64,000 nucleotides of DNA from Catajapyx aquilonaris. Taxonomy: Eukaryota. The DNA lies in assembly GCA_000934665.2 (NCBI GenBank), contig KZ538200.1, forward strand, positions 1 through 64,000. Direction: 5' to 3'. A model generated the notes under the pieces. The model saw only the letters and a list, made by a program, of their open reading frames with translations. It was not told the DNA's origin and made no database searches. This document shows, piece after piece, positions 2,308-27,800 of the stretch. Both the position numbers and the translations under genes were made by a program. Every line of letters begins with the position of its first letter. Position 1 is the stretch's first letter.

Positions 2308-3795
2308 CTAATCAGTGCTGTTTATCCCACGTAAGCTTCCTTGAGTTTCTTCTTCTGTGCTTCTGAACTGAGCCAGGACTATCATGTATGTTGTCACTCC
2401 GCCTGCCACCTGCAGTACATGAGGTGCACAGTTGGTTACAAACAATGAAGAACCAGAAGAAAGGTTTGTTGATGAGAACTTACGGAAATCAACACGGCTC
2501 GGTTTATAGGGAAGAAATTGGCTGCCGTTATTTGCACTGGAGAAGCACTCATTTTCCATATTATCGAGTTAACCTTTGAAAACAAAAGGTCACAATGTCG
2601 GGATGTTACAATCGTTAGCATTAACTCTCTATACACTGCTCATAATTAAGAAATTACGAATAATACGTAGTCGTAGAAAACAATTTCACGGTATTGTATA
2701 CAATGTTCATTTTACACACCTGTGCTTGAGAAGCAGGATTAAGATCCAAAAGCCGCACTTCTAATAGGGCATCCAATGATGCGGTAGCCTGTGTAAAGAA
2801 AATAATAAGCTAAAATAACACATTGTGAAGCTAAGCTAAAGCACCAACAAACGTGAATAATAAAGTGTGTCATGACTTACCTGACATTGTATGCTGTCTG
2901 CATAGTAGGTGACGAGACATCCCCTGGATAAGTTTCCAATCAGACATACACATATTAGAAGTTTCCATGATATGCCATATGAATTCCAGTGATAAATAAC
3001 GTTAAACACTCCGATGACAACATTCAATACAAACAGTGCAAAAATGATGCATAAGTTTAGGCCAAATAATGCGCTCGTTTCTTCGGTCAACTTGCAAAGC
3101 TTGAAGTAAATGTGCCCTATATTTGAAAATCTATCAGCTGAAGCGGCATGTCTGAAGAAGGTTACAGTTGGAATGAAAATGTTACGATAATTAGAGCAGA
3201 TGGACTTGACTGTCTCGTTGAACCAATTAAACGTGATTCCGATGGCCGCAAAAATGAAGCACAACTGCCCAAGAAGCAGGTTCGACACAATATCAGATTG
3301 GAAAGCAAAAATAACTACGTGCCACCCATAAACATGGGAATAATTGGCGACAACTAATGCCGCAACTAAAATAGATTCCAATACGGACAAAATGACGACC
3401 TTCCACGCAAAATTACGAAGGTAATAGTTTCCTTCAACACCTGCGACAGCACCAAGTTGGTTGGACTCCTGCAGAATATTTCTAATTTGCCTCCACTTGC
3501 TAGTCAGTAATAAGGCGTTGATCATATCAAACACTAGTTTTAAGACGAACATGACTTCCAACACGTTTGTGGTCCCCCAGCCGGAAAGTGACATTGCATT
3601 CCAAATAACCATAAATAACATGGTGAGAAAGTACATCATGTTAACAAGAGTGGTCCATCTGTGTGTAATGGGGAGTGTTGATGGATAGAGTGGCCAGGAC
3701 CACAGGCCAAAAAGAGCAGATACACAAGCAAGAGGATGAAAGGACCAGTATGCATCTGGTACCACACGATTGGATCTACGTAGCACACTTGGCAT
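2308..3795 (-). CDS. Gustatory receptor (7tm chemoreceptor, GR family), about 391 aa; exons 3795-2881, 2788-2720, 2573-2484, 2409-2308
   Basis: A long hydrophobic multi-TM first exon is followed by three short C-terminal exons with phase-0 GT-AG introns, including a 90-nt penultimate exon (VNSIIWKMSASPVQITAANFFPINRAVLIS). The last exon carries the GR signature TYxxxxxQF (TTYMIVLAQF). This is the classic arthropod GR gene architecture. Confidence 0.92.
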
Positions 3796-4155
3796 TTTTC
3801 TGTCGAAGCTCAACTTCACTGCACCTACACAGGAAAAGTCTCTACTGACAGTCTTATAAAGAAACTAGTATGTGACAAAGTTCCATTTGCTTTGGGTCGA
3901 TTTACAACACAAGAACTGACAAGTATGGACACTTTGACAATGCACTTTGCCAGAAATTGTCGTGAGGTGTCATTGTGTACATATGTACATGTAAAGTGGA
4001 TAGTTTTATTACAAAATTCTTGTACAATGAGGCTTCCTTTGATTTACAGGGGCAATAAAATCGGTAATTAAACATTTGCATGCGTATGGTGACATCAACC
4101 CAAATGAACATAATAAGGCCATAAATTCTTAGCTCCTGGGAAATGTATCCAGTGT

Positions 4156-7100
4156 TTATTTATCACTTGAGATCGCTTCAATTTCACGAACTAACTTGTC
4201 ACTAATAATCTTTAAAGCCTCCAATTCATCTTTAAGGTCACTAAATTTTCTAGCAACTTGTGCCAACCCATCACACATTTTGTCTTGAGCATCTTTAATG
4301 TCCCTAACAAGTAATAAACTCTCATTTACTTTAGAGGAAATTTCTACCTGCTGAGTTTCAAACTTGTCTTCTACATCATTCATCTTGACCAAAGTCTGAT
4401 CTAGTTTTGAGCTGAGACCACTAGTTTCCTCCTTCAGAAACGGAATTAACATGGTTTCCAGAGCACTTGAAATGTCTCGTGAAATTTGACTCATCTTTCT
4501 CTCTAGTTCACCCTTTGCCTGCTTAACTTCCTGTCCTATTTCTTGCCTAAAAATTAGTCCGTGTTCTCTGGCCGCTTGAACCTGCTGTTCCAATCCATGA
4601 AGACTCTTCATGGCAACTTCAACGTTCTTCTTTTCCATCTCTTCCTCTGTTTCAAGCTGCTTCCTCTCAATCAGGGCCCTCAAGGAGTCGATTGCCTGTT
4701 TGGGAAGGCTGAAACCCTTGCGTTTGCATTTTCCTTTGGAAAGGTCCACTTTGATTGTTCCTCTTTGCAGCTTAGGAAACAGGAGTATTTTGCTGAGCAC
4801 CATGGTATTCCAGAGTCTTCTCATGTGGCGAAATATGAAGTATTCTTTCCATCTTGAAATTATTAAAATTGTAGTCATGAATCACTTACAGTGCATTGTG
4901 TAACTTACCTTCTCTTGGATGTGCTTAAGTACCGTTGACACACTGGAACAGACGGTCTTCGAAAACAAAATGATTCAGTGTTGCAAATGAATTCCACCAG
5001 TGACAAAAGGCAGTACAACTCAGCCTCTTCTGATATGGCGTTGGTGTCACTCACAGCCAGAGCATTCAGAAGGTTCATCAGAACAATCAGGACCAGGAAT
5101 ACAAACAGGATGAAGACGACGAGGCCAATCTGAGGTAGGACGTTAAAAGGGATGCTGGCAAAGTCAACCTCTCCAACCATCATGACCATGGTTTTTAAAA
5201 TGACCAGTTCTGGATGCTGGAAAAACTTGCTGCATACATTAACATCACTCTCCGGACAGAGGTGGAAGATGAGGTAAAAGGAAAGGACAAATCCGATGAT
5301 GAGAGCCAGGAAAAGGATCAGGAACCAAATGTAATTCTTCAAGACTGTCGAAAACATGGCAACATATCTGGCAAATTTAGGGAATCGTCCAATCAGAAGC
5401 ACAAATTCTATCCAAGCTAGGAGCGTAGCTAGGATAGTAATCTCTCTCTCAGCACCAGCATCCAGCACGGAAGACACACTCAGGATGGCGCAAACAATCA
5501 TCAGAAGTTCCATGTAATTTTCAAAACTTCGAACATAACGTGCTAAAGACGCCCAAAATTGATGTAACTCTTTAATAACTAACGCAATCAGCAGGAACTG
5601 AGTCAATCTTTTAGAGACTAAATGTGCATAACTAATTTCCTCTCTAAAATGGAAATTGCTGGTCGCGTTTAATTCCATCGCTTTTTGAGCATTTTCTAGT
5701 GAAATTGCAAGAAACACCACGTGCACACTCCAGGATATGACAAACATTCCAAATAGCAGGAGATTGAGCCAGAAGAAGGCAGAGGCACAGTGCCACTTGA
5801 GGTATATAAAGCATGCCATCACGGGATGATTGAGCAATTTCACGTTCTTTGGATGAAGTCGAAAGTACTCCAGACGCTCCCATTCGGCCGTGTCGTTGTT
5901 TGGACTCAGTAACTCGAAATTGACCACAACCACTTGAGAAGCATCTTCGTTCGCCTTTACCTGCTTCTGCACACAGTCGTCCAAGTATCGTTCTAATATT
6001 GGCAAAGGCATTTTGTCAACAGGACGTGAACCTTGTTTGTCTCTAAGCCATAAGTTGCCGCCACAATGTAACAGTTTGATGATGGTCGCGGTGTTGAGGT
6101 TGCAGGTGGCATAAAAGATAGGAGTGTGACCTTCGTCGTCTCGAGCATTAACATCAGCACAGTGCCGGGTGTCAGGATGAGACTTGATGTGATCGATGAT
6201 CATGTTGACACACTTGTCATAGTCTTGCGATTTAGAGTTGAGGTTGATCTGAGAAAAAATGCTGTACTTTTCCTTAATGAAGTTGTGAGTTCCTTTGCAC
6301 AGCACGTGCAGGACAGAGGTTCTATGGACAGCCACGTCCATTTGGATCGATTTCTCCTTAAGAAGTGCGGTGATGGAGTTGACGTGTCCCCACGAGGCGG
6401 CTAAAAGTAGAGGTGGGGCTGGACAGCCTGGGCTACTTAGGTTAGGGTCAGCTCCAAGCTTGAGGAGTGTCTCGACACAATTGTTAAGATCTAAGAGACA
6501 TGCTAACTGCAACATTGTATACTGTCCGTCATCATAATTGACATCAACAACTCTCAAAGATCTAAGCAGGAACTTGTGAAAGAGATCATCTCGTTGGCAG
6601 TAAAGCGCTTTAAATATGAAGTCCTTCAGGCTGCCTTCCACGTTCTGTTGAGCTTCCAGCAAGTGTACCAAGTTGGCGTTCTTCGGCAAGTTGTCCATAT
6701 CGCGAGGGTCTGCCATGTGCAATATGAGCGTTTCAATTGCGGAGAAGTTGTTCTCTTGAACTGCTAAACGTAGCGCAGTGTTCCCTCTCCACGACTTCGC
6801 ATTGACCATCACTCTTGGCGAGGCCAGCATGAACTGAAGAACCTCCGATCTGGTCCAGGAAGTGTCGGCTTCCCGGCCTCGTACTGCCAAATGTAACGGA
6901 GTGATTCCGTCGCAGTCATGCGAATTCACTTGCACAGCAATCAAGTCTTCCGAGCTGTCTTCCTTTTCCACATTTCTGTACTGCAGAAGCAGACCTGCCA
7001 CCTGGAGGAATCCGCTTTTGGTGGCCAGATGAAGCGGGATGGCCCCTTTCTTGTTGGCTATTCGCCGGTTGGCCTTTCTCTTGAGGAGCATGCGTGCCAT

Positions 7101-9055
7101 GTCGTAGTGCCCCTTCCTGGCAGCCAAATGCAATGGTGTGTTGCCGTCGTCGTCTGTAGTGTCCAGCTTGGCGTCAGCGCCAAGGGCACGAAGAGCAGCC
7201 TCGATGTCCCCTTCCCTTGAGGCGAGCAAAAGGTGTTCCTTCGGTTTCCGGGGATTGGCAATGTTCATTTCCAACCGACTTGTATCTGACAACCAGTAGG
7301 CCAGCTCGTAACACCGCTTGGCAGCAGCCAAGTCGTATGGACGATGCCGCTTGTTGTTCCTGGCCTTCGGGTCGGCACCTCGTGACACCAGCTCGACAGC
7401 CACCTCCTTGTGGTTGTTGACAGCAGCCAGATGGAGCGGGGTGTTCCCCACAGAGTCACGGGGCTGCACATCCACCACGTGTCCCAGCTGCTGCACGATC
7501 TGCAAGTGCCCCAACTCCGCAGCAATATGAAGAGGGGTTTTACCCTCCTTGTCCATAGCTTCCAGATCAAACTGGCAACTCTGAAGCATCTCCAGCGCTT
7601 CAGGTCGTCCATCTTTGGCAGCCAAATGGACTAGCGTGAAACCACTATTGTTGACCAGAGTGTTCCAGGCTCCCATACTTACCAGCCTCTCCGCCACTTT
7701 AAACTGCCCGTTCTCAACAGCGTCGTGCAACGGCGTGTTTCCAGTAACCTTACTCTGAACCTTCAAGGATGCTCCCCTGCTCAAAAGAAGGTTCACAATG
7801 GGCAGGTGTCCTCTCCAGCAGGCCACATGCAGAGCAGATCTGTTGTCCTTGTCCAGTCGGTCCAGCAAATCTGGAGAGGTGTCCAGCAGCAAGGCCACTG
7901 TGTCTGTCTTGCCTTTGTCTGCGGCCCAGTGCAAGGGAGTCCTGCCATCCAGGTCAAGGCAGGCCACTTCTGCACCACTTAGGAGCAGTTCGGACACCAC
8001 TCCTCCGTGACCTCTCCCTGACGCCATGTGAAGAGCTGTGGCCCCTCGGCGTTCCTTGCTGTTTATGTTGATCTGAAGGTGAAAGTTGTGTTAGTAAACC
8101 ATTCAATTGCAGCATTGCAAGACTCACATCTGAGTTGACCACCAATGTCTTGACGCAAGACATCTGATTTCTGGCCGCCGCCATATGCAGAGGTGTCCTC
8201 CTAAAAGCCTTTTCGGCCACATTGACCTCCGCACCTTTGGCAAGAAGAGATCCCACCACCGCCACGCAACCATTGCTGGCAGCATAATGAAGAGGAGTCC
8301 AACCATGGTTGTTCAAACTGTCCACCTTCGTGTAAATATAGGGTGAGTATAAAAACTGACTTGACTGAGGGCAATACATTTTTTACCCAAATATAATGCC
8401 GAGTCTATAATACATACGGGTTGTTCCGGTAGTTTCAACAGTTCCTCCACCACCCGGTGTTGTCCATCGAACGCTGCCCGGTGCATAGGTGTGCATCCTT
8501 TCCGATCCTTAGCCACCGGATTGGCCCCTGCTTCCAGAAGAATAAGGACCGCTAACAGATGACCTTTAGCAGCCGCAATGTGCAGGGCAGTCAGTGCAGT
8601 CTCAGAGTCCGAGTGATCCACAGCTGCCTTGTGTTCCAGCAGGACACGCATGACATCAATGTGACCTTTATACGCCGCCAGATGCAGGGCTGTATGACCT
8701 CGAGGATCAGTCGAGTCCACTGGAACATTCTCCTGAAGCAGCTCTTGCACCTGATGGGTCTGGCCGCTTCTTGCAGCCAGTCTCAGGACATCTCCTTTAG
8801 TCGCAGGGATGGCAGTCAGTGGGTTGACACCATGAAAGTCAATCACCTATAAATACAGTGTGTTACAATTGCATACATTTTATACAGGACACTTACGTAA
8901 TTTGGCATCAGCAGAGGTGTTTTCACATCCTCCTCCATGACGTTTTGGTGTTCATATTTGGTTGACTTGCTGCTGTCGAATCCTCCTTGGGTCTTGACCA
9001 TCATCATTTCGTTCTCTTCGCTGCTGCCAACCTGCTTCGTCTGCTTCTGGCCCAT
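4156..9055 (-). CDS. pain: TRPA-subfamily cation channel, painless-like, about 1548 aa; exons 9055-8897, 8846-8418, 8325-8128, 8072-4909, 4852-4156
   Basis: GT-AG introns of 50-92 nt join five segments in frame. The product has about 22-24 ankyrin repeats, a pre-S1 segment 'LLNHPVMACFIYLKW', six TM helices, pore region 'KTMVMMVGEVDFASIPF', S6/TRP-like 'IVLMNLLNALAVSDTNAISEEAEL' (resembles Painless) and a C-terminal coiled coil. The TRPA call is strong; the painless sub-assignment comes from motif recognition only. Confidence 0.88.
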
Positions 9056-9294
9056 TTTTAGTGATTTGTACCAAAATGGAAAGTGACTTTCCCCCAGATG
9101 AGTTGTTGACCAAATGTGATAGTTATCTGCTGTGTGTTTACCCTCAGCTGAGCTGTTTCAATGTACACATGTTGGAGAAATTAGCCCTGCCCCAACTATG
9201 TCATCTGTCTAGTGGAATGCACTACAATCCATATCATTGTCACTGTAACAATTGTGCAATGTTATATATAGAATATAGCCAGTCACATGCTTAT

Positions 9295-9388
9295 CTGAAG
9301 AAACCCCATTTCCACCAGCTTATTATCATCCATCTGGCGCCATATGAACGTATTCACAGAAACAATGAATAGAGTGTATCGCACTCAC
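9295..9388 (-). other. Putative 5'-UTR intron of the TRPA gene
   Basis: Minus-strand donor AAG|gtgagt at 9388 and acceptor 'gtttcttcag' at 9295, giving a 94-nt intron similar in size to the other introns of this gene. Confidence 0.4.
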
Positions 9389-12300
9389 CTTGCCTTCCAG
9401 CGATGTACCCGTATCACTCGGCACATCTGTCACATCTGCGTGGCACAATGCAGCAAAACGGCTATGATAACACAATCACACAGATAGTCTGTTCAAATAA
9501 TGCATCAAGATGAAATCCTCATTTAGCAATTTATTCTTAACAAATGCATATAACATGTAATATACTTCTTATATGACGCCAATTAATCTCTTAACATGAT
9601 TACTTTTATACATAAATATGGACTGCGTTCCTTTTCTTCCCCATTTTCTCCATCTTGCGCAGTAGAATCCTCAGGGTGATCATTTCTTTTTTTTCTTTAC
9701 CCTCCTTTTTTTGCCAACACACTTTACATCCTACAGACCAAGTTGTGCTCGTAAAACATAAAAAGGAAGAATATACGAGGCCTACAAATTTCCGTCTCTA
9801 TCCAGTGGCAGCTATTTTAAAAAAGCACAAGACATCTACCTATCCAGATAATAACTCGCACTCAGTGATGAGAAACAGCGTAAGAATCATTGTTGATCAG
9901 AGTCACTATTATTATTATTATATATATATTTTTTGGAAGACTGACCATCGACGGCTTTCTTCTCATACATGTCATTTGTTTCAACTGATGTCAGTCATCG
10001 TCTTCATTTTGGTGACAGCCGTTGCCCTTTTCTCACACTGCTGCTTACAAAACATAGGTATACACAGTAAATACCTTGGGCTACATTAAACAGCACAATT
10101 CACGACGCCGACAGCACAACCAAGCTACAGAAAGAAGAGAAGTCTCGCGCACAAAATGAAAACAGTATAAATAACACTCAACACTACCAAACACAGCTGC
10201 ATATTATATTATTTTTTTCAAATTTTTCAAAAATTTAGCAGGAAGGAAGCAAAAACCTGGCGTTTCGAGCTCTATGCTTTGATATTTACATCGGACATAT
10301 TCATGTTACTTTTTAACACAGGCTGATTATAAGCCTCCCCAGCCACATTGAGCACCCTGCAATCTACCGGCATATTCTAACATTTTTTTTTGAAAATTTG
10401 TTGCTCTTTTGTTCTTTACGCTGTCGAAGGACCGCTACTGAAACACGATGTCAAAAAAAGCCAGAGTGACATGCTCTACGATCCACCGATAGTTTTCGAA
10501 AGCCCACACGTTTCGTCAATATCACAGAATGAATGGTCGTGCCAACAGTGTGGCATTTCAGGGAGACAATATGGTGCAGCATAATTAGGTCACTCTGGCT
10601 ACTCCTTTTGCCCATTCGATATCATCACGACCCCAAGAAGGAAGTGGCTACACAGGCTTTTAACAACGGAAGGCATAACCAAAAGAAAAAATTAACAGCA
10701 AAACAATATTATTATTATTTTTTTGCAACTCCAGTCTCTGCCACTGGATAAAATATATCGGCCCCTGGTATAGTTCTCGTCAACAAAAACATCCCATCTA
10801 TTATGTTAATACTGCTAAAACATCAGTCATCCAGTCCATTTGACACGGTATAAAAGCCTCACATCCCAAAAACTAGGTTACTTTGTCATGTTTTGGACAA
10901 TATTGTGGACCATACAGTGTAATGAAAACTGCATAGGCTAAGCAGAACAGTGCACTGAGAGAACACATTCTGGTTCCGAAAAAAGAGGACGCTGTTGGTG
11001 ACCTCCTGATGACCCAAAAAGTGGTCCTCGACTTCACTGGAAAATGGGCAAGAAAGTCCAGCTTTCAAGCCCGGTTGTGTACTGGGTTCACACTGGTGTC
11101 GTTGTCTTTCAGCCAGTTCACCAACCAGAGACAACGACACCCATGTGAACCTTCAGTTTGCAGGCCTGCTGATTGGCTGAAATAGCCTTTCACAGTACTA
11201 CAAACCTAAAAATTACTGTCCAGTGTCACCAACGTCTCCTGCACATTTTTCCGCTATTTTAATCCCATTTATTTTTGGGGGAGAAAAAACGGGTTTTTCT
11301 GCTTAACGCTGCGGTTACATGTGGAACTGCAACCAACTAAATTACATTGTTCTCCAAACTTCACTGCTGTCTGGAATGTCCCGATATGGGTACAAGTTAT
11401 GCTGCTTTAGCGCACTTTGCAACAAAAAAAAAACTGCTTATCTACGCAGGAGTTACCCAAAAAAAAACTTCTTTTCCACAGAAAGAACCCATAATTTTTT
11501 TCACTGACGACAAGCAGGAAGAAACATTGTTTACGGGGACAATGGAAGAAAAAAGTATGATTCGAACATATGAAGTTGTCTCGATACGTGTACTTACGCA
11601 CTATTACAATCGGCAGACAGCATCAGCACTAAGCTTCCAAACAGACGTAACTACACGTATCTGACGCGCGAATTCACATGGCAATTTATTTTTATTTTTT
11701 TCAAAATAAATTCATGACATATACCCCATTGTTGCTGGTCATTTCCTGACTGTGTAACTGACTGCGGCAGAGTGTTGAGCAATTTGGGCAGAAAATTTGC
11801 AAGTTATGGTGTGAAAAGTGAGCTTTGCAAATTTTAAAAAAACAACAACAACTAAGCATTTCACCATTAGCAAAGGCACATGTTTGATTATTAATGCTTT
11901 GACACACCGCGTTATGCCTTGTGATATTAAATATGGTGATTCATACGCTTAGAAAACACAACATTTTGGCACTGCTTGCTAAAAAATGACGCTAGATGTC
12001 ACTACCTTCGTAGCGACATCTACCAACACTTCAGCTCAACTTACCCAAATAAATTTAAGCAACATCCCGAAATAAAAAGGCTTTAACTCTGCAACCACTT
12101 GTTAACGACCATTAATGCAATTGATTCGTAATTATTACACTTACATGTTCAATACGTTAATTAGAGAGAAATTAAAAGGCCGACGGCTCTGCCCGCAAAT
12201 TTAGCTTCAAATTATGCGATGTATCACTGAATCACCTGCCTACGCTCAGTATTTTTTTTTGGCGGTCTGGAAAACCTACGCATTAGGTGATTAGTCAATA

Positions 12301-12893: not shown

Positions 12894-15800
12894 TCAGGTG
12901 GCCGTCTCTCCTCCTTGGTTTTTCCCACCACCACCACCACCACCAGCGTCCTTTTCGTACCCTTCCACTAGAGTCTCGATGATGAACTTGATGGCTATCT
13001 TGTATATGGACTCGACGTTCTCCGTGTATCGGTCTCCTAGGGTTGTCTTGACCGCCTCCAGGAACGGTTTCTCGATACGCTGCAATAGAGCACCATGTAT
13101 TTAGATTACGGTGCGGCCAGGAACACACTAAAGAACGCTGCCCTATTGATTTTCAATACGGAGAGATTGGCTCCAGGGACCTATAATTATGTTGGCGGGG
13201 TATGGGGAGGAAAGGGTGGGTATATACCATAACCCAAGTACAGAGGAAAAACGACTTCAAGTGCTTTCCTCTACGGTCTCATAATATTGAACAGCCTAAT
13301 CCTTAGCGGAAATAAACACATCAGAGCGGCCTCTAAAGGCCTCCATATTTCTCTAGAACGCATAAACGTCGGTATATAGTCCGTGTATACATAAGCACCT
13401 CGTTAAAGTTGTGCGAGTTGGAAATTTTGACAACAGATGGCGCGCCACCTGTCTCACGACTACATGTCGTATGTAGTCGTGAGACAGCCTGAGACGAATC
13501 TAGCTGGTGAGTGATTCTATACGTAAATCCTGCAAAAAGTAAAGCGTCACGTTATTTTCTGCCAGCACAATATTTGACCAGCAAACACGCGGTTGGTTGC
13601 GTACACTTTAACATTGATTTTCAAAACGGGCCAGCCATAGTACAGGCCGCTTGAAAGCAAAGTTCTCACTGTCAAAGAAAGACAGATATGAGCAAATGAA
13701 GCTCGAAGCGGCAGTGCAGCTCTCCCTTCATTTCGGCCCAACCGAAATCGGAGCTTTCATGTGGCCGTGAATAATACATGAGCTTACGTCCGAAACGAAG
13801 CTTAGGCCTTCCCTTCAAAAAAATTGTCCAAAATTATTTTTGCATTAAGCTGTGTACGTGGATGTACCCGGAAGGGGGAAAAAACAATTTCTCACAGCCA
13901 ATTAGCGATGATCTATTTACATTTCCTTAACTTGTGTTAATTTTCTTAAAAAATAATTATAGCCCATCAGTACTGAGTCTAGAAGTGCGGACTCCATGAA
14001 TGAATTGGGCAGTGACCCCCAGTGCCGAATCGTGCCAAATCCCACCGCAATGATGATTATTAATGGCTATCCGAGAGTACATTACACCCCCGTGCGACTC
14101 TGCAGGCGGAGCAAAAGTGAGAGGAAAGGCCCTGTGGCGCCGCCGGGGCGCCACCCGGTCCCTACTCTCGGATGCCAGTCCTGATATAAAGTGGGTCCAT
14201 TTGCCCAATTGCTCCAGGGGACCTTCATCTACCAACCCAGAAGAAGAAAACCACGTGCCATTCCTCACGCCTTTAGACATTCCGTTATATGCTAAACGGT
14301 CAGGACGTGTTCGGATCCTGCTGATTTGCAAATATAGTCCTGAAATTACTTAATTGCTAGTATTGCAGCAGCTATCCTGCTTAAAAAGCATTAATATATT
14401 AATAAGAAGCGTCTCGAAAAGATAATATCATTCCAGCCTGTATATCACGTCCAAATTGGATTAATTTTTCCACCATCCTCCTTACAAAAAAAGAAAATGG
14501 AAGGAGAAAAAAAAACCCACCCTGTACTATACTGGAGCCAAAATTGTAATTTCCCAACGGAGAGGGCTTCTGATTAAGAAGAGGAAATAATTCAATTGAG
14601 CTCACTCCCTGCAAAACGAGTTTCTTTAGATTGAAAGGCAGTGAGGCGGGATTACTTAATAGCAGTTTGCTCTTTCTATTACCGGTACTTGTAGATGTCC
14701 CACCAATCTAAAAGAAATCACTCGACTCTACTCATCGATGAATAGGAAATCAATTGCACTCCAAATCACCAAGGAATGTTGATGACATATTTTGTCCCCA
14801 ATAAAAAAAGTGAAACTCACCCAAAAATATTCCTTCTTGAATCCCTGGATGCGGCGATGCGAGGCCCCCGTCTGATGGAGGAAGTCGAAGAAGGTGTCGA
14901 GGTTGTCCAGGGACTTGATGCTTTCGTCTAACGTGGACATGACAGTCGTCGCGTGCTCGGCAAGCTCCATGCTTTGCGCCTGGGCCTCTTTGGTTTTCAA
15001 CTCGCGGAACTTCTCGAAAAGGCTCAGAAGTTCCTCGTGCTCCTCGAACAACCTGTCAAAAAATGTACGAGAGGGAATGACGTGATGGCTGAAGTATCGT
15101 GACATCATGCAAATCATCTCTGCGTTGAAGTTTTTCTTATATACACTTTTAACCATTTACCTTCTCTAGAGAGGGTAAGAAAGTGGCCATTTTTTACCTT
15201 ACATTGTAGGGTAAATATTCTTGGGTAAATTGATTCTAAGGTAAATTTTGCATGTATTACCTTAGAAAATAGAGGGTAAAAAATGGCCACTTTCTTACCC
15301 TCTCTAGAGAAGGTAAATGGTTAAGAGTGTATGGTTATTATTTATATGGATGAAGTATGTAACTGGTTGTTATAAAGCTGGAGCCAATCACAGATGGCCG
15401 CACACTGACTCTAGCCAATTAACGCGTCTTGCTTCCACCAATCCCTTCCGTTTCGCCCTGTCACACCCGTATAACGAGAACATGCACAGAACGAGCAATT
15501 ACAGAATTTCCATGAACTACACTTGGCAAAATATAGAAGAGGGGAAAAAACGCGAAAGCGTGTTTAGAACCCTTTCAATGCAGAGGTCTAGTTATTTTTA
15601 CCTTCAAAGTGAAAGGGAGAGCGTCCAATTATCTGCATGACACTACTACACCATTACCAAGTTTTCAGAACACTCTACAAAGTACCAACGGCGCTGACTT
15701 TATGTAAGTTAATTTATGAAATGAGGCTCTTTTTCCCCCATAGGAGCCTTTCAGTTAGGCCTGGTTAACGTTGCATAAAGCTACTCATACATCAGCATTA

Positions 15801-24800: not shown

Positions 24801-27800
24801 TCTACGAGAGTGGTCACTAATAGTTACCAATTACTTGCACTCATTTGATTACCGCATGCACTCTACGGGCAAGGCTATACTTTTCATCTGTCGCATTAGG
24901 CCGGAACAGACCCAAGTAAATTTCATTATCAATCGCAAAAACATATTGCGCGGTACAGCCGGATGTAATATCACTCTAATTCGTGCACGTGGAATGAGGT
25001 ATGGGCGGGATGGAGCTATAAAGTACGTGTAACAAGGTCCGTTTATTAAATGCAAGTGGTCACGCGGAATACTCGCAATACCACGAATTAATGACCTGTG
25101 GCTGCCCTTCCTGTCATGACCCTATCTGAGAGTTCCGGACATTCCTCCACATCCCTCATGTCATATAAGTTTATTACACCCCCCTACGATATTATGAGTC
25201 CAACGCAACAAGTCATCAAAAAGATGGGTATAGCCCAACAACAACCGGACCTACGACATCCCAATTCAGAGCACGATCGGCCATCTTTTCCACGCGATTT
25301 TCTCAAGTTATCCTCCAAACAGCCATTTTGGAGAAACCGCTCTCATAAATACCTATAAACGTCACTAGTTGACGCCTTCTCAAAATTGACCCATTCGGCA
25401 AATGAGCTTCAACAGTATCGATATCATCTCCCTAAAGGCGACAAGTAAGAGCTTAATAAAATCTTAAGAGCCTGGTAAAAGCCGACTTAGAAATGGAAAT
25501 CGACATCTTAGACTCACGCAAGTGTAAACCCCTTGGGTCCTTTTTGTCCCCAAATTTTTTTTGTGAATCCAAACCGATTGTTTAGTCGCACGCATGGCCA
25601 CAGACACTAATTTGGTTGCGGTCTCTGCCCTGCGCCCAACCCCTGTCACCGCTCATCACAAAATCGATACCCTGCTGCTGGACACCCTTTCCTCTTCGAT
25701 ACACACACAGCTTATGGCTTCTTCCAACCCCAAACATCGTGTATATCCAGCTGCTAATACCATTTGCATACAGTATCTTCAACAAAGGTACCCTACCACA
25801 TTTGGGCTATCCTTGCATGATGCAACCCATCAACCATGAATGACGCCAATCAGCAACTGTGCCACTTCTTCCTCCATGATTTCGTATAAGGTAGGCCCGC
25901 AGGGTCTCCAACTTTATGCTCGCGGGTGTACATGCGCCCAAGTAGCAACCAGCAGGTCAAGTGATTGCAACTGAGTTTCCTCATGAGACCACCAAGTTCT
26001 GCGTTTCACTTGAGAAGAATTTGGTGGGTGGGTGGGTGTTCCACCTTTGTAGGCACAAAGAAGGCCCCGGCTGCCATGCTGCGAGTGAGATCGATGCGAG
26101 CTACCTTTCTGGCCCGCAGAACACCTCAGAAGCTAGCTGGCTAACTAACCAACCCACCCACCCACCCTTTTTTTGGCAAAATGCCTTTCTCGCACAATCT
26201 TCCATCGGGTTTCGCAATATATATGTGAATGGAGCCTCCTTGAGAAAAGAAACTTGGCCACTTGGGAATGGAGAGAGCCTGCCACAGCCACGTGAGCTCG
26301 ACTGCTATACCAGGCTTTNNNNNNNNNCCCCCCCTATTTTTGGACATGAAAAGTGTCGGATATTCACTCCCAAGACTATCTGATGAACACGCTCCACATG
26401 GGGATACTCGAATAATGTCCAGAAAATCTATTAAATATTGGATCCATGTATCAGAGTTATAGACACGAAATCTTTGACCTCCCAGATTAATCTTTTTTTT
26501 TACTAGGAAAGAAAGTTATGGGTAATATTTATCTTCTGTGTATGGCTTGTAGCTGCTTGTAGTACTGTACTATATCATGGACTGTAATAGAGCCTGACAT
26601 ATACATATGCTGGGTAATTTAGTAGGTTACACCACGACCACTGTAAATGCCTAGTGGGATTAGAGCGAAAACAGGGAGTTACTTTGGATTCATAACAGTG
26701 GGTAGTCTTTACAACAATAAACCTGAAACGTGTTTCCATTACCTAGACATAATGCTTGCTGAGCAGATTAAAGCAGTGGCTCGAACTAACAGAAAAAAAA
26801 GTGCAGAAACACAACATACCTCATAACTCATACGATATTGTCTTCGCCTATATACCCTAATCCTATCATATAAGCCATTCCTTTGATCTTTACAGTTGTG
26901 ATAGAACATGTAAAAAATTCATGTGAGACAAACAAAGCAGGCCTATTTTTATGGCAAAGTCAGGTTTTAGGTCTTACGAAACAAGAGAATAGTACAATAA
27001 AATTGTTTGAAATTTATGTGTAAGATGGAACGGTATGAGAGGGTAAGCTACGGATTCATGTGGTAGTAATAACTACACAGAGTTCGTCGATTGGAGGTGA
27101 ATTATTACACTTTCCCCGTTTTCACTAATGCATCACTTATTTATGCAACTTGGGCCTCCATATATTAAAGTATTACAAAAATCATGAGCTAATCTATTAC
27201 CTTTTCAAATGGTCCAAATAAAATATCTCTACACATTATTTACGTAGCATAATTGTACTGTACACCCATGTTAAAACGTAATAGTGCCCTTATTTAATTC
27301 AATAAAGCGTTAATTTATCATACCAGTTTGGCCGTGGTTGCCTGCTAACAAATGATGTGAATTATTCATTACGTCATGCCAATTACTTTGCTTTATGTTT
27401 GTAGAGCTAAATTACGTGAGATAATATAGGACAACCATTTTCCCTTTACTTATTAGCCTTATCAGTTATCACCCACTCGACCCATACAGTAACACGTTGT
27501 TTCATCACTGTTATGTGTTAATTTCACTTATTTACTAAACATTCAATGAAGAAAACAATGTACTTCTTCATTACATGACAACAATTTTAAAGCGGCTTAC
27601 AGTATTATGTGCATTCTTCCTTAAGTCAATACTGTACAGTACACTGTATTTGTCCAAATATTTTCTAAAGTTAACTGCCTTTAATTCAAGTTTCATCAAC
27701 AACGCGGCACTAAAAACAAACTTCAGCGGATCCTTCCAGATTTAATAACAAGTCGCAACAATATTTAATGTGCACCCTGGCAGCAATCTGCCTTTAGATA

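Follow-up and report, generated by a model that had tools for sequence, protein, structure and literature searches.

A basal TRPA channel gene of Catajapyx aquilonaris encoding 23 to 25 ankyrin repeat units and a predicted C-terminal coiled coil

Here, we describe a gene of Catajapyx aquilonaris that encodes a channel of the TRPA family in which 25 ankyrin repeat units, 23 of them confident, precede a TRPA-type pore. The gene lies on the minus strand of contig KZ538200.1, from 9055 (A of the ATG) to 4156 (last base of the TAA), within a window of 64,000 nucleotides (nt) that covers positions 1 to 64,000 of the forward strand (NCBI GenBank assembly GCA_000934665.2). The gene is genuine and intact, and at least part of it is transcribed. 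We favor, with a probability of about 70%, a reading in which its product would be a tetrameric basal-TRPA cation channel that combines an ordinary Painless-type core and proximal module with an elongated ankyrin arm and tail, and in which the extra ankyrin stacks would form a docking or tethering arm. A previous sequence-only reading had placed a Painless-like channel with about 22 to 24 ankyrin repeats at 4156..9055; these positions are the exact stop-to-start bounds of the gene, and the repeat count was right.

Results

Gene structure and transcription

Joining five exons gives a coding sequence of 4647 nt, the sole stop of which is terminal, and a product of 1548 amino acids (aa). The four introns measure 50, 92, 55 and 56 nt, and all four have GT..AG ends. 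Exon 1 (8897..9055, minus strand, as are all features of this gene) supplies the start codon, the earliest ATG in its frame and set in the context aaaATGG, and a 53-aa N-terminus outside the repeats, in which a Pfam scan matched no domain; its donor is gtaagt. Exon 2 (8418..8846; 143 aa, phase 0-0, acceptor tatag, donor gtatgt) encodes the capping repeat and repeats 2 to 4 (Pfam Ank_2, E 2e-29), and exon 3 (8128..8325; 66 aa, phase 0-0) is a cassette whose length equals exactly two repeats (Pfam Ank, E 8.6e-16). Exon 4 (4909..8072) is a single open frame of 3164 nt that, by Pfam and an AlphaFold2 model, encodes repeats 7 to 25, the linker, S1-S6 and the post-S6 helix; its Pfam matches comprise Ank_2 (E 4.1e-84, eight stretches), Ank (E 7.2e-73, seven stretches) and Ion_trans (E 3e-09). 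Exon 5 (4156..4852) encodes a C-terminal tail of 232 aa and the TAA stop, and a Pfam scan of it matched no domain. An AATAAA polyadenylation-type signal is present at 4005..4010, 146 nt past the stop.

Several lines of evidence support this gene model. First, because exon 4 alone holds 19 repeats and the whole pore domain, the join of array to channel is independent of splice prediction. Second, the ankyrin spacing of 33 to 34 residues is continuous over the exon 2/3 and exon 3/4 junctions, and thus supports both splices; the junctions of exon 3 lie at offsets 29 and 27 of the 33-aa repeat unit. Third, tblastn of the spliced protein against the 64-kb window found no ankyrin- or channel-coding stretch beyond 4159-9055 (E≤1e-3) and, therefore, no further repeat exons lie hidden upstream in the window. 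Fourth, a spliced RNA contig from the public run X5 joins 4909 to 4852, and the 56 nt that it skips, with GT..AG on the minus strand, are the modeled last intron; a second X5 contig spans 4032-4290, over the channel stop codon. Fifth, an open frame of 1061 codons that keeps 50 of 57 family-conserved columns is not due to chance.

These data also bear on the idea that the gene copy is silent or in decay, or that faulty assembly fused an ankyrin gene to a channel gene. The very long branch of the channel in the trees described below, the lack of a close relative among the best 150 of 2292 database matches and an assembly gap elsewhere in the window would fit that idea. We consider it highly improbable, given 4647 nt without stops or frameshifts, the conserved columns, the existence of a spliced contig and the presence of repeats and pore in one exon. 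A 13,442-nt DNA contig from run X1 likewise agrees with positions 3900-9400 with zero differences, but X1 is possibly the source of the window itself.

The ankyrin array

Exons 2 and 3 encode six repeat units, which start at residues 70, 105, 139, 172, 206 and 240. In the AlphaFold2 model of exon 4 (a monomer built from a 68-row alignment; mean predicted local distance difference test [pLDDT] 82.0, predicted template modeling score [pTM] 0.59), 19 helix-pair units precede the beta-linker, two of which fall in low-confidence stretches (exon-4 residues 235-275 and 463-479); they are followed by the last helix pair of the linker, two beta strands, the pre-S1 helices and the transmembrane helices. 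Together, the exons account for the 25 units. A hidden Markov model (HMM) built from 14 of the channel's own repeats gave 14 strong matches that are circular and only four weak extra matches that are new. VIA-align recovered two ankyrin blocks that are rigid, one at model residues 35-235 and the other at 275-455, with root-mean-square deviations (rmsd) of 1.3 to 2.1 Å, while its search with the whole exon 4 model was filled by designed ankyrin proteins and was uninformative on the pore part.

The array is predicted to form three stacks (repeats 1 to 13, repeats 15 to 19 and about six proximal repeats) that are parted by two hinges. The distal stack A, repeats 1 to 13 (residues 70-501; 7356..8798 including introns 2 and 3), is delimited by the own-repeat HMM and by the superposition of model residues 35-235 on designed ankyrins (rmsd 1.6 to 2.1 Å). 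It is followed by hinge 1, or a degenerate repeat 14 (residues 502-540; 7239..7355), where pLDDT falls below 50 at exon-4 residues 235-251 and 257-275, and by stack B, repeats 15 to 19 (residues 541-722; 6693..7238; model residues 275-455, rmsd 1.3 to 1.6 Å). Hinge 2 and a proximal Painless-homologous module (residues 723-962; 5973..6692) complete the array. The region in front of the transmembrane domain (residues 700-1000), with the last five or six repeats of the channel and its linker, is colinear, in one stretch and with 93 to 98 bits, with residues ~245-465 of Painless-type proteins. The extra repeats of the channel, therefore, precede, on the N-terminal side, a proximal module that is conserved. 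The four degenerate repeats that had been quoted from the sequence (GQYTMLQLAC from residue 778, PPLLLAASWG from 815, SVLHVLCK from 848 and GHTPIFYA from 910) are present, and all are in this module.

The 14 clearest repeats have a mean mutual identity of only 30% (maximum 48%), and the array is thus old rather than the product of a recent tandem burst. A recent gain, as the proposal that a Painless paralogue had gained a long array would suggest, is not borne out.

Because exons 2 and 3 are both of phase 0-0, skipping either keeps the frame, and skipping exon 3 also keeps the repeat register; in-frame skipping of these exons could vary the length of the arm. A related alternative is that the animal makes a shorter protein, with part or all of the distal array dropped by an internal promoter or by skipping of exons 2 and 3, and that the 1548-aa form is minor or conceptual. 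The phases and the two-repeat cassette would suit such a product, the junctions of exons 1 to 3 are outside the RNA cover, and Drosophila painless, as described in an excerpt of PMC3266251, makes isoforms with fewer or no repeats. We regard this alternative as unlikely. Translation begun at residue 278, the earliest Met in exon 4, would still keep 19 units, which is above every count listed in PMC10993193 (Table S5), and exons 1 to 3 are open, correctly phased and keep the canonical ankyrin consensus, which argues that they are translated.

Residues 1 to 7 of the channel, MGQKQTK (listed at 9034-9053, minus strand), fit what we take to be the N-myristoylation pattern, G-{EDRKHPFYW}-x(2)-[STAGCN]-{P}. 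An MG start was found in none of the six relatives whose sequences were compared. Myristoylation would pin the far end of the arm to the membrane, and we treat it as a lead only.

Linker, pore and C-terminal tail

A beta-strand linker and pre-S1 helices (residues 963-1010; 5829..5972; strands at exon-4 residues 701-704 and 714-717, helices at 730-748) lead into an invariant HP motif directly after the linker. The transmembrane core, S1-S6 and the pore helix (residues 1011-1275; 5034..5828), was assigned from hydropathy, Pfam Ion_trans and the match to solved TRPA1 chains. Hydropathy peaks mark S1, S3-S6 and the pore helix, and the helices are also present in the AlphaFold2 model, as in a six-helix ion-transport domain. 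The pore-loop motif GEVDF (residues 1229-1233; 5160..5174) aligns to GELDF of the Drosophila TRPA1 chain 7ykr_A. The 50 of 57 columns kept, each conserved in at least 85% of 67 relatives, include G1229 and E1230, and the seven changes are mostly conservative. Judged by sequence, the TRPA-type pore is intact, with the GEVDF pore motif and the S6 motif NLLNALAVSD.

Residues ~1370-1548 are rich in E, L and K, contain one proline and follow a heptad pattern. From this pattern and from in-register contacts in a four-copy fold, residues 1397-1545 (4168..4614) are predicted to form a parallel coiled coil. The four-copy fold of tail residues 50-231 scored 0.38, and the best of three controls 0.00; among proteins solved as one-chain pairs, 21 of 30 attained a score of 0.38, whereas none of 23 solved as single chains did. 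The four-copy runs agreed in at least 94% of contacts, with a partner pLDDT of at least 67, and contacts were in register (182-182, 146-146) over tail residues 80-228. The C-terminal helix spans about 150 residues versus 59 in the nearest relative, P0060.

Family assignment

Used alone as a query, the pore core (374 aa) matched 10 distinct PDB sequences at E≤1e-3, nine of them TRPA1 (best 7ykr_A, 9e-16, 61 bits) and one 'Inactive'. NompC (5vkq) was absent from this search at the same threshold, and the channel thus showed no TRPN-type pore core; NompC and ankyrins top the PDB matches only when the query includes repeats. The best Foldseek match was also 7ykr_A (E 1.3e-23), with NompC 5vkq_A at rank 8. 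The pore core scores 53 to 61 bits against solved TRPA1 versus 190 bits against Painless-type proteins, which is not the similarity of a TRPA1-clade member. The channel has the long N-terminal ankyrin domain of TRPA channels and, with 23 to 25 repeats, departs from the ~10 repeats of Painless. An Atlas search with the pore core returned generic TRP and Ion_trans clusters, the top one of which scored 0.95 and was mostly of Nematoda, and was of no help for placement, and an NCBIfam search returned only weak ankyrin-effector matches far under the cut-offs.

These searches bear on a further alternative, namely that the channel is a convergent gating spring of the NompC type, in which 23 to 25 repeats, anchored distally to the cytoskeleton or, via a myristoylated Gly2, to the membrane, would convey force to the pore and bring mechanotransduction into TRPA. 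The repeat number nears the 28 to 29 that an excerpt of PMC8539334 gives for TRPN, stack A continues through 13 repeats without a break, and the rank of 5vkq_A in Foldseek as well as the N-terminal MGQKQTK would be in line with this idea. However, the Foldseek and phmmer matches to NompC rest on the ankyrin part, the pore core is without a NompC match at E≤1e-3, and the two low-confidence hinges would break the array into three stacks, unlike one continuous spring. Moreover, we know of no anchoring partner, which also counts against a spring. Altogether, we consider a gating spring quite unlikely.

A HMMER search of 1.84 billion representatives gave 2292 matches at E≤1e-3. We examined the best 150, and the top match reached 190 bits and 41% identity. 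This protein and those akin to it come from insects and bear the automatic name painless in their sources, and all source-named relatives are arthropods. A core phylogeny, which had been suggested as a check of the Painless assignment, was run with Pyrexia and Painless rows covered; the trees were midpoint-rooted and held no true TRPA1 or TRPN row. For FastTree, 302 rows with a core match, including the channel, were reduced to 282 by removal of five two-core proteins and of incomplete cores, and the ids up to P0203 plus 13 named proteins gave 199 rows. In this tree, the channel was sister to pyrexia-named proteins (support 90). The grouping was lost under a mixture model, and we treat it as long-branch attraction.

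A first IQ-TREE tree under LG+C20 contained 64 rows after removal of 11 long-branch rows and pruning of near-duplicates. In this tree, the channel, the Pyrexia group and a group containing krill met in a weak three-way fork (support 76), and the insect Painless clade of 28 rows did not include the channel. A second C20 tree, to which named copepod, decapod and krill proteins were added, contained 66 rows (67 chosen, one dropped for an incomplete core). Here, the Pyrexia group was parted at support 99, and the channel was the first branch of the other 60 rows, sister to the remaining 59 (support 86). A tree constrained to unite the channel with the Painless clade is worse by 7.83 log-likelihood units, and the approximately unbiased (AU) test does not reject this grouping (p 0.317). 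In these trees, the channel is an orphan long branch in the Painless/Pyrexia (basal, non-TRPA1) part of TRPA, located between the Pyrexia group and the Painless and crustacean groups. The idea of a Painless paralogue is borne out insofar as this is a TRPA channel whose best-scoring relatives are of the Painless type and share its colinear proximal module; placement within the Painless clade is neither established nor refuted, with both C20 trees putting the channel outside it and the AU test allowing the grouping.

The architecture among relatives

Of 401 relatives fetched, 394 have one pore core, five have two and two have none. The channel has 1000 residues before S1; in the 394 one-core relatives, this region has a median length of 490 aa, measures 690 aa at the 99th percentile and is 804 aa at its maximum. 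The relative with this maximum, P0328, also carries a trypsin domain, and the next longest pre-S1 region is 756 aa. All five relatives longer than 1600 aa hold two pore domains. The channel is also long after the core, with 248 aa versus a median of 140, and only two of 380 relatives exceed it. As a control, the same fold-and-count procedure applied to P0060 (996 aa, pLDDT 80.4) gave 11 units before the linker, in agreement with published counts. These repeat counts, from AlphaFold models, are 10 for Painless, 9 for Pyrexia, 9 to 10 for Waterwitch, 14 for TRPA5B and 17 for TRPA1 (PMC10993193, Table S5), and crayfish TRPAs are 683 to 1294 aa long in Table 1, the part of PMC13483504 on which we draw. 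A literature search for a TRPA with 22 to 26 ankyrin repeats returned no such channel, its titles and abstract openings being concerned with latrotoxin or with ankyrin and TMC. Thus, the expectation that the array is longer than in known TRPA channels was confirmed against the 394 one-core relatives and the published counts.

The two-core relatives P0205, P0064, P0096, P0010 and P0135 (1603 to 1979 aa) have two complete pore cores each and are either merged tandem Painless-type genes or true double channels; by their source names, they include one fire ant protein and one damselfly protein. In another relative, P0158, the repeats end in an NFNLDIN-type motif, and the coiled-coil tail is also repetitive.

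Neighboring features

An open reading frame for a 318-aa multi-pass protein lies at 2836-3864 on the minus strand (Met frame 2839-3792), i.e., on the same strand as the channel and ~200 nt past its polyadenylation signal. It resembles an arthropod-type gustatory receptor (7tm_7), with a top Atlas score of 0.96 and 23 of 30 matches that carry only 7tm_7, mostly from Arthropoda; its Pfam 7tm_7 match (E 3.7e-05, 23.7 bits) is under the cut-off of 26.6. A 142-aa frame at 14728-15156 on the minus strand contains a globin domain (PF00042, E 5.8e-14) and is probably one exon of a globin gene. The assembly gap, at ~26300-26383 on the plus strand, consists of unknown bases that appear as XXXX in the frame 25946-26383.

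Discussion

In the reading that we favor, the pore, the linker before S1 and the five or six repeats nearest the membrane would be an ordinary Painless-type module that presumably gates as in the Painless family. N-terminal of it, 18 to 19 extra repeats would form two further stacks, of 13 and 5 repeats, separated by hinges, and the long C-terminal helices of the four subunits would most likely combine into a parallel central stalk, which we liken to the short coiled coil of TRPA1. The extra stacks would then work as an additional arm for docking or tethering and would tune how heat, chemicals or force gate the channel. A role of these stacks as the main sensor of force is less likely, and we rate a pure gating-spring role lower.

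Several observations weigh against this reading. On the side of structure, the three-stack geometry comes from a monomer model with a pTM of 0.59 and two low-confidence hinges. The outcome of the four-copy fold is possibly a memory of the solved TRPA1 coiled coils; it was calibrated on two copies whereas the job had four, and among eukaryotic proteins without an older solved relative only one of seven passed. The role that we give to the extra repeats is one that we infer. In the pore, the S6 Gly that is kept in 94% of the 67 relatives (NLLNGLAVSD) is Ala in the channel (residue 1266; 5062-5064, minus strand), a change that may alter the flexibility of the gating hinge. On the side of transcription, the RNA cover of run X5 confirms the last intron only; it is absent from 5188-9400 and, thus, silent on exons 1 to 3. 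With respect to evolution, none of the 394 one-core relatives shares the long-array architecture, and conservation of the array can, therefore, not be shown; long-array relatives may sit among the HMMER matches past the best 150 of 2292. Finally, the end branch of the channel is very long, with 1.65 to 2.69 changes per column (2.69 in the second C20 tree), and the gene may be fast-evolving.

A bolder version of the spring idea can also be drawn up, in which the channel would be a second ankyrin spring, arisen within TRPA independently of NompC. Its arm, pinned by a myristoyl group on Gly2, would lay its three stacks along a ~20-nm four-helix stalk and would read deformation of the membrane or cytoskeleton, or else act as a temperature-sensitive module, with skipping of exon 2 or exon 3 tuning its length. 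We offer this as speculation and think it doubtful.

Whether the ankyrin arrays of TRP channels are springs, thermal modules or docking platforms is still argued, and the answer differs among NompC, TRPA1 and Painless. The channel described here takes an ordinary Painless-type pore and module and adds ~14 repeats that are old and diverged, as well as a tail helix of two to three times the usual length. Such a build allows a clean series of truncations on one pore, removing stack A or stacks A and B, or shortening the stalk. It also extends the repeat number of basal TRPA channels well past the 9 to 17 reported for insects.

Comparison with known channels

The insect Painless proteins are the best-scoring relatives of the pore core. 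They have in common with the channel the proximal module, the linker, S1-S6, the GE.DF and NLLN.LAVSD motifs and a C-terminal helix. They differ from it in length (~900 to 1030 aa versus 1548 aa), in repeat number (10, or 11 in P0060, versus 23 to 25) and in the tail helix (~59 versus ~150 residues), and the channel is nested in the insect Painless clade in neither C20 tree. Pyrexia is the FastTree sister (90) and part of the three-way fork in one C20 tree (76) but is separated at 99 in the other; moreover, the 30 best matches of the region in front of the transmembrane domain include no protein named pyrexia, and Drosophila Pyrexia has nine repeats.

TRPA1 (7ykr, 6v9v) is the sole solved family that matches the pore core besides the weak 'Inactive' match. 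TRPA1 and the channel share a long ankyrin domain, and the C-terminal coiled coil of TRPA1 has a predicted counterpart in the channel; TRPA1 has 17 repeats versus 23 to 25, and its coiled coil is much shorter. NompC and other TRPN channels have a comparable repeat number, and NompC is the top phmmer match when the query contains the ankyrin part; by contrast, its pore core is unmatched, and two predicted hinges would interrupt the array of the channel. In the starfish Patiria pectinifera, a 'TRPA basal' protein of 1398 aa exceeds the 1200-aa TRPA1 of the same animal, according to an excerpt of PMC5438368, so that long non-TRPA1 TRPA channels are not unheard of. The starfish protein is not a near relative as judged from length, because no one-core protein longer than 1321 aa is among the 394 relatives; the sequences themselves were not compared.

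Another channel with an enlarged array is P0158 (1261 aa), a member of the Painless clade in which 756 aa precede S1 and the coiled-coil tail is repetitive. Its extra repeats are 55 to 67% identical and point to a recent tandem burst, versus the 30% mean identity in the channel, and P0158 nests inside the insect Painless clade.

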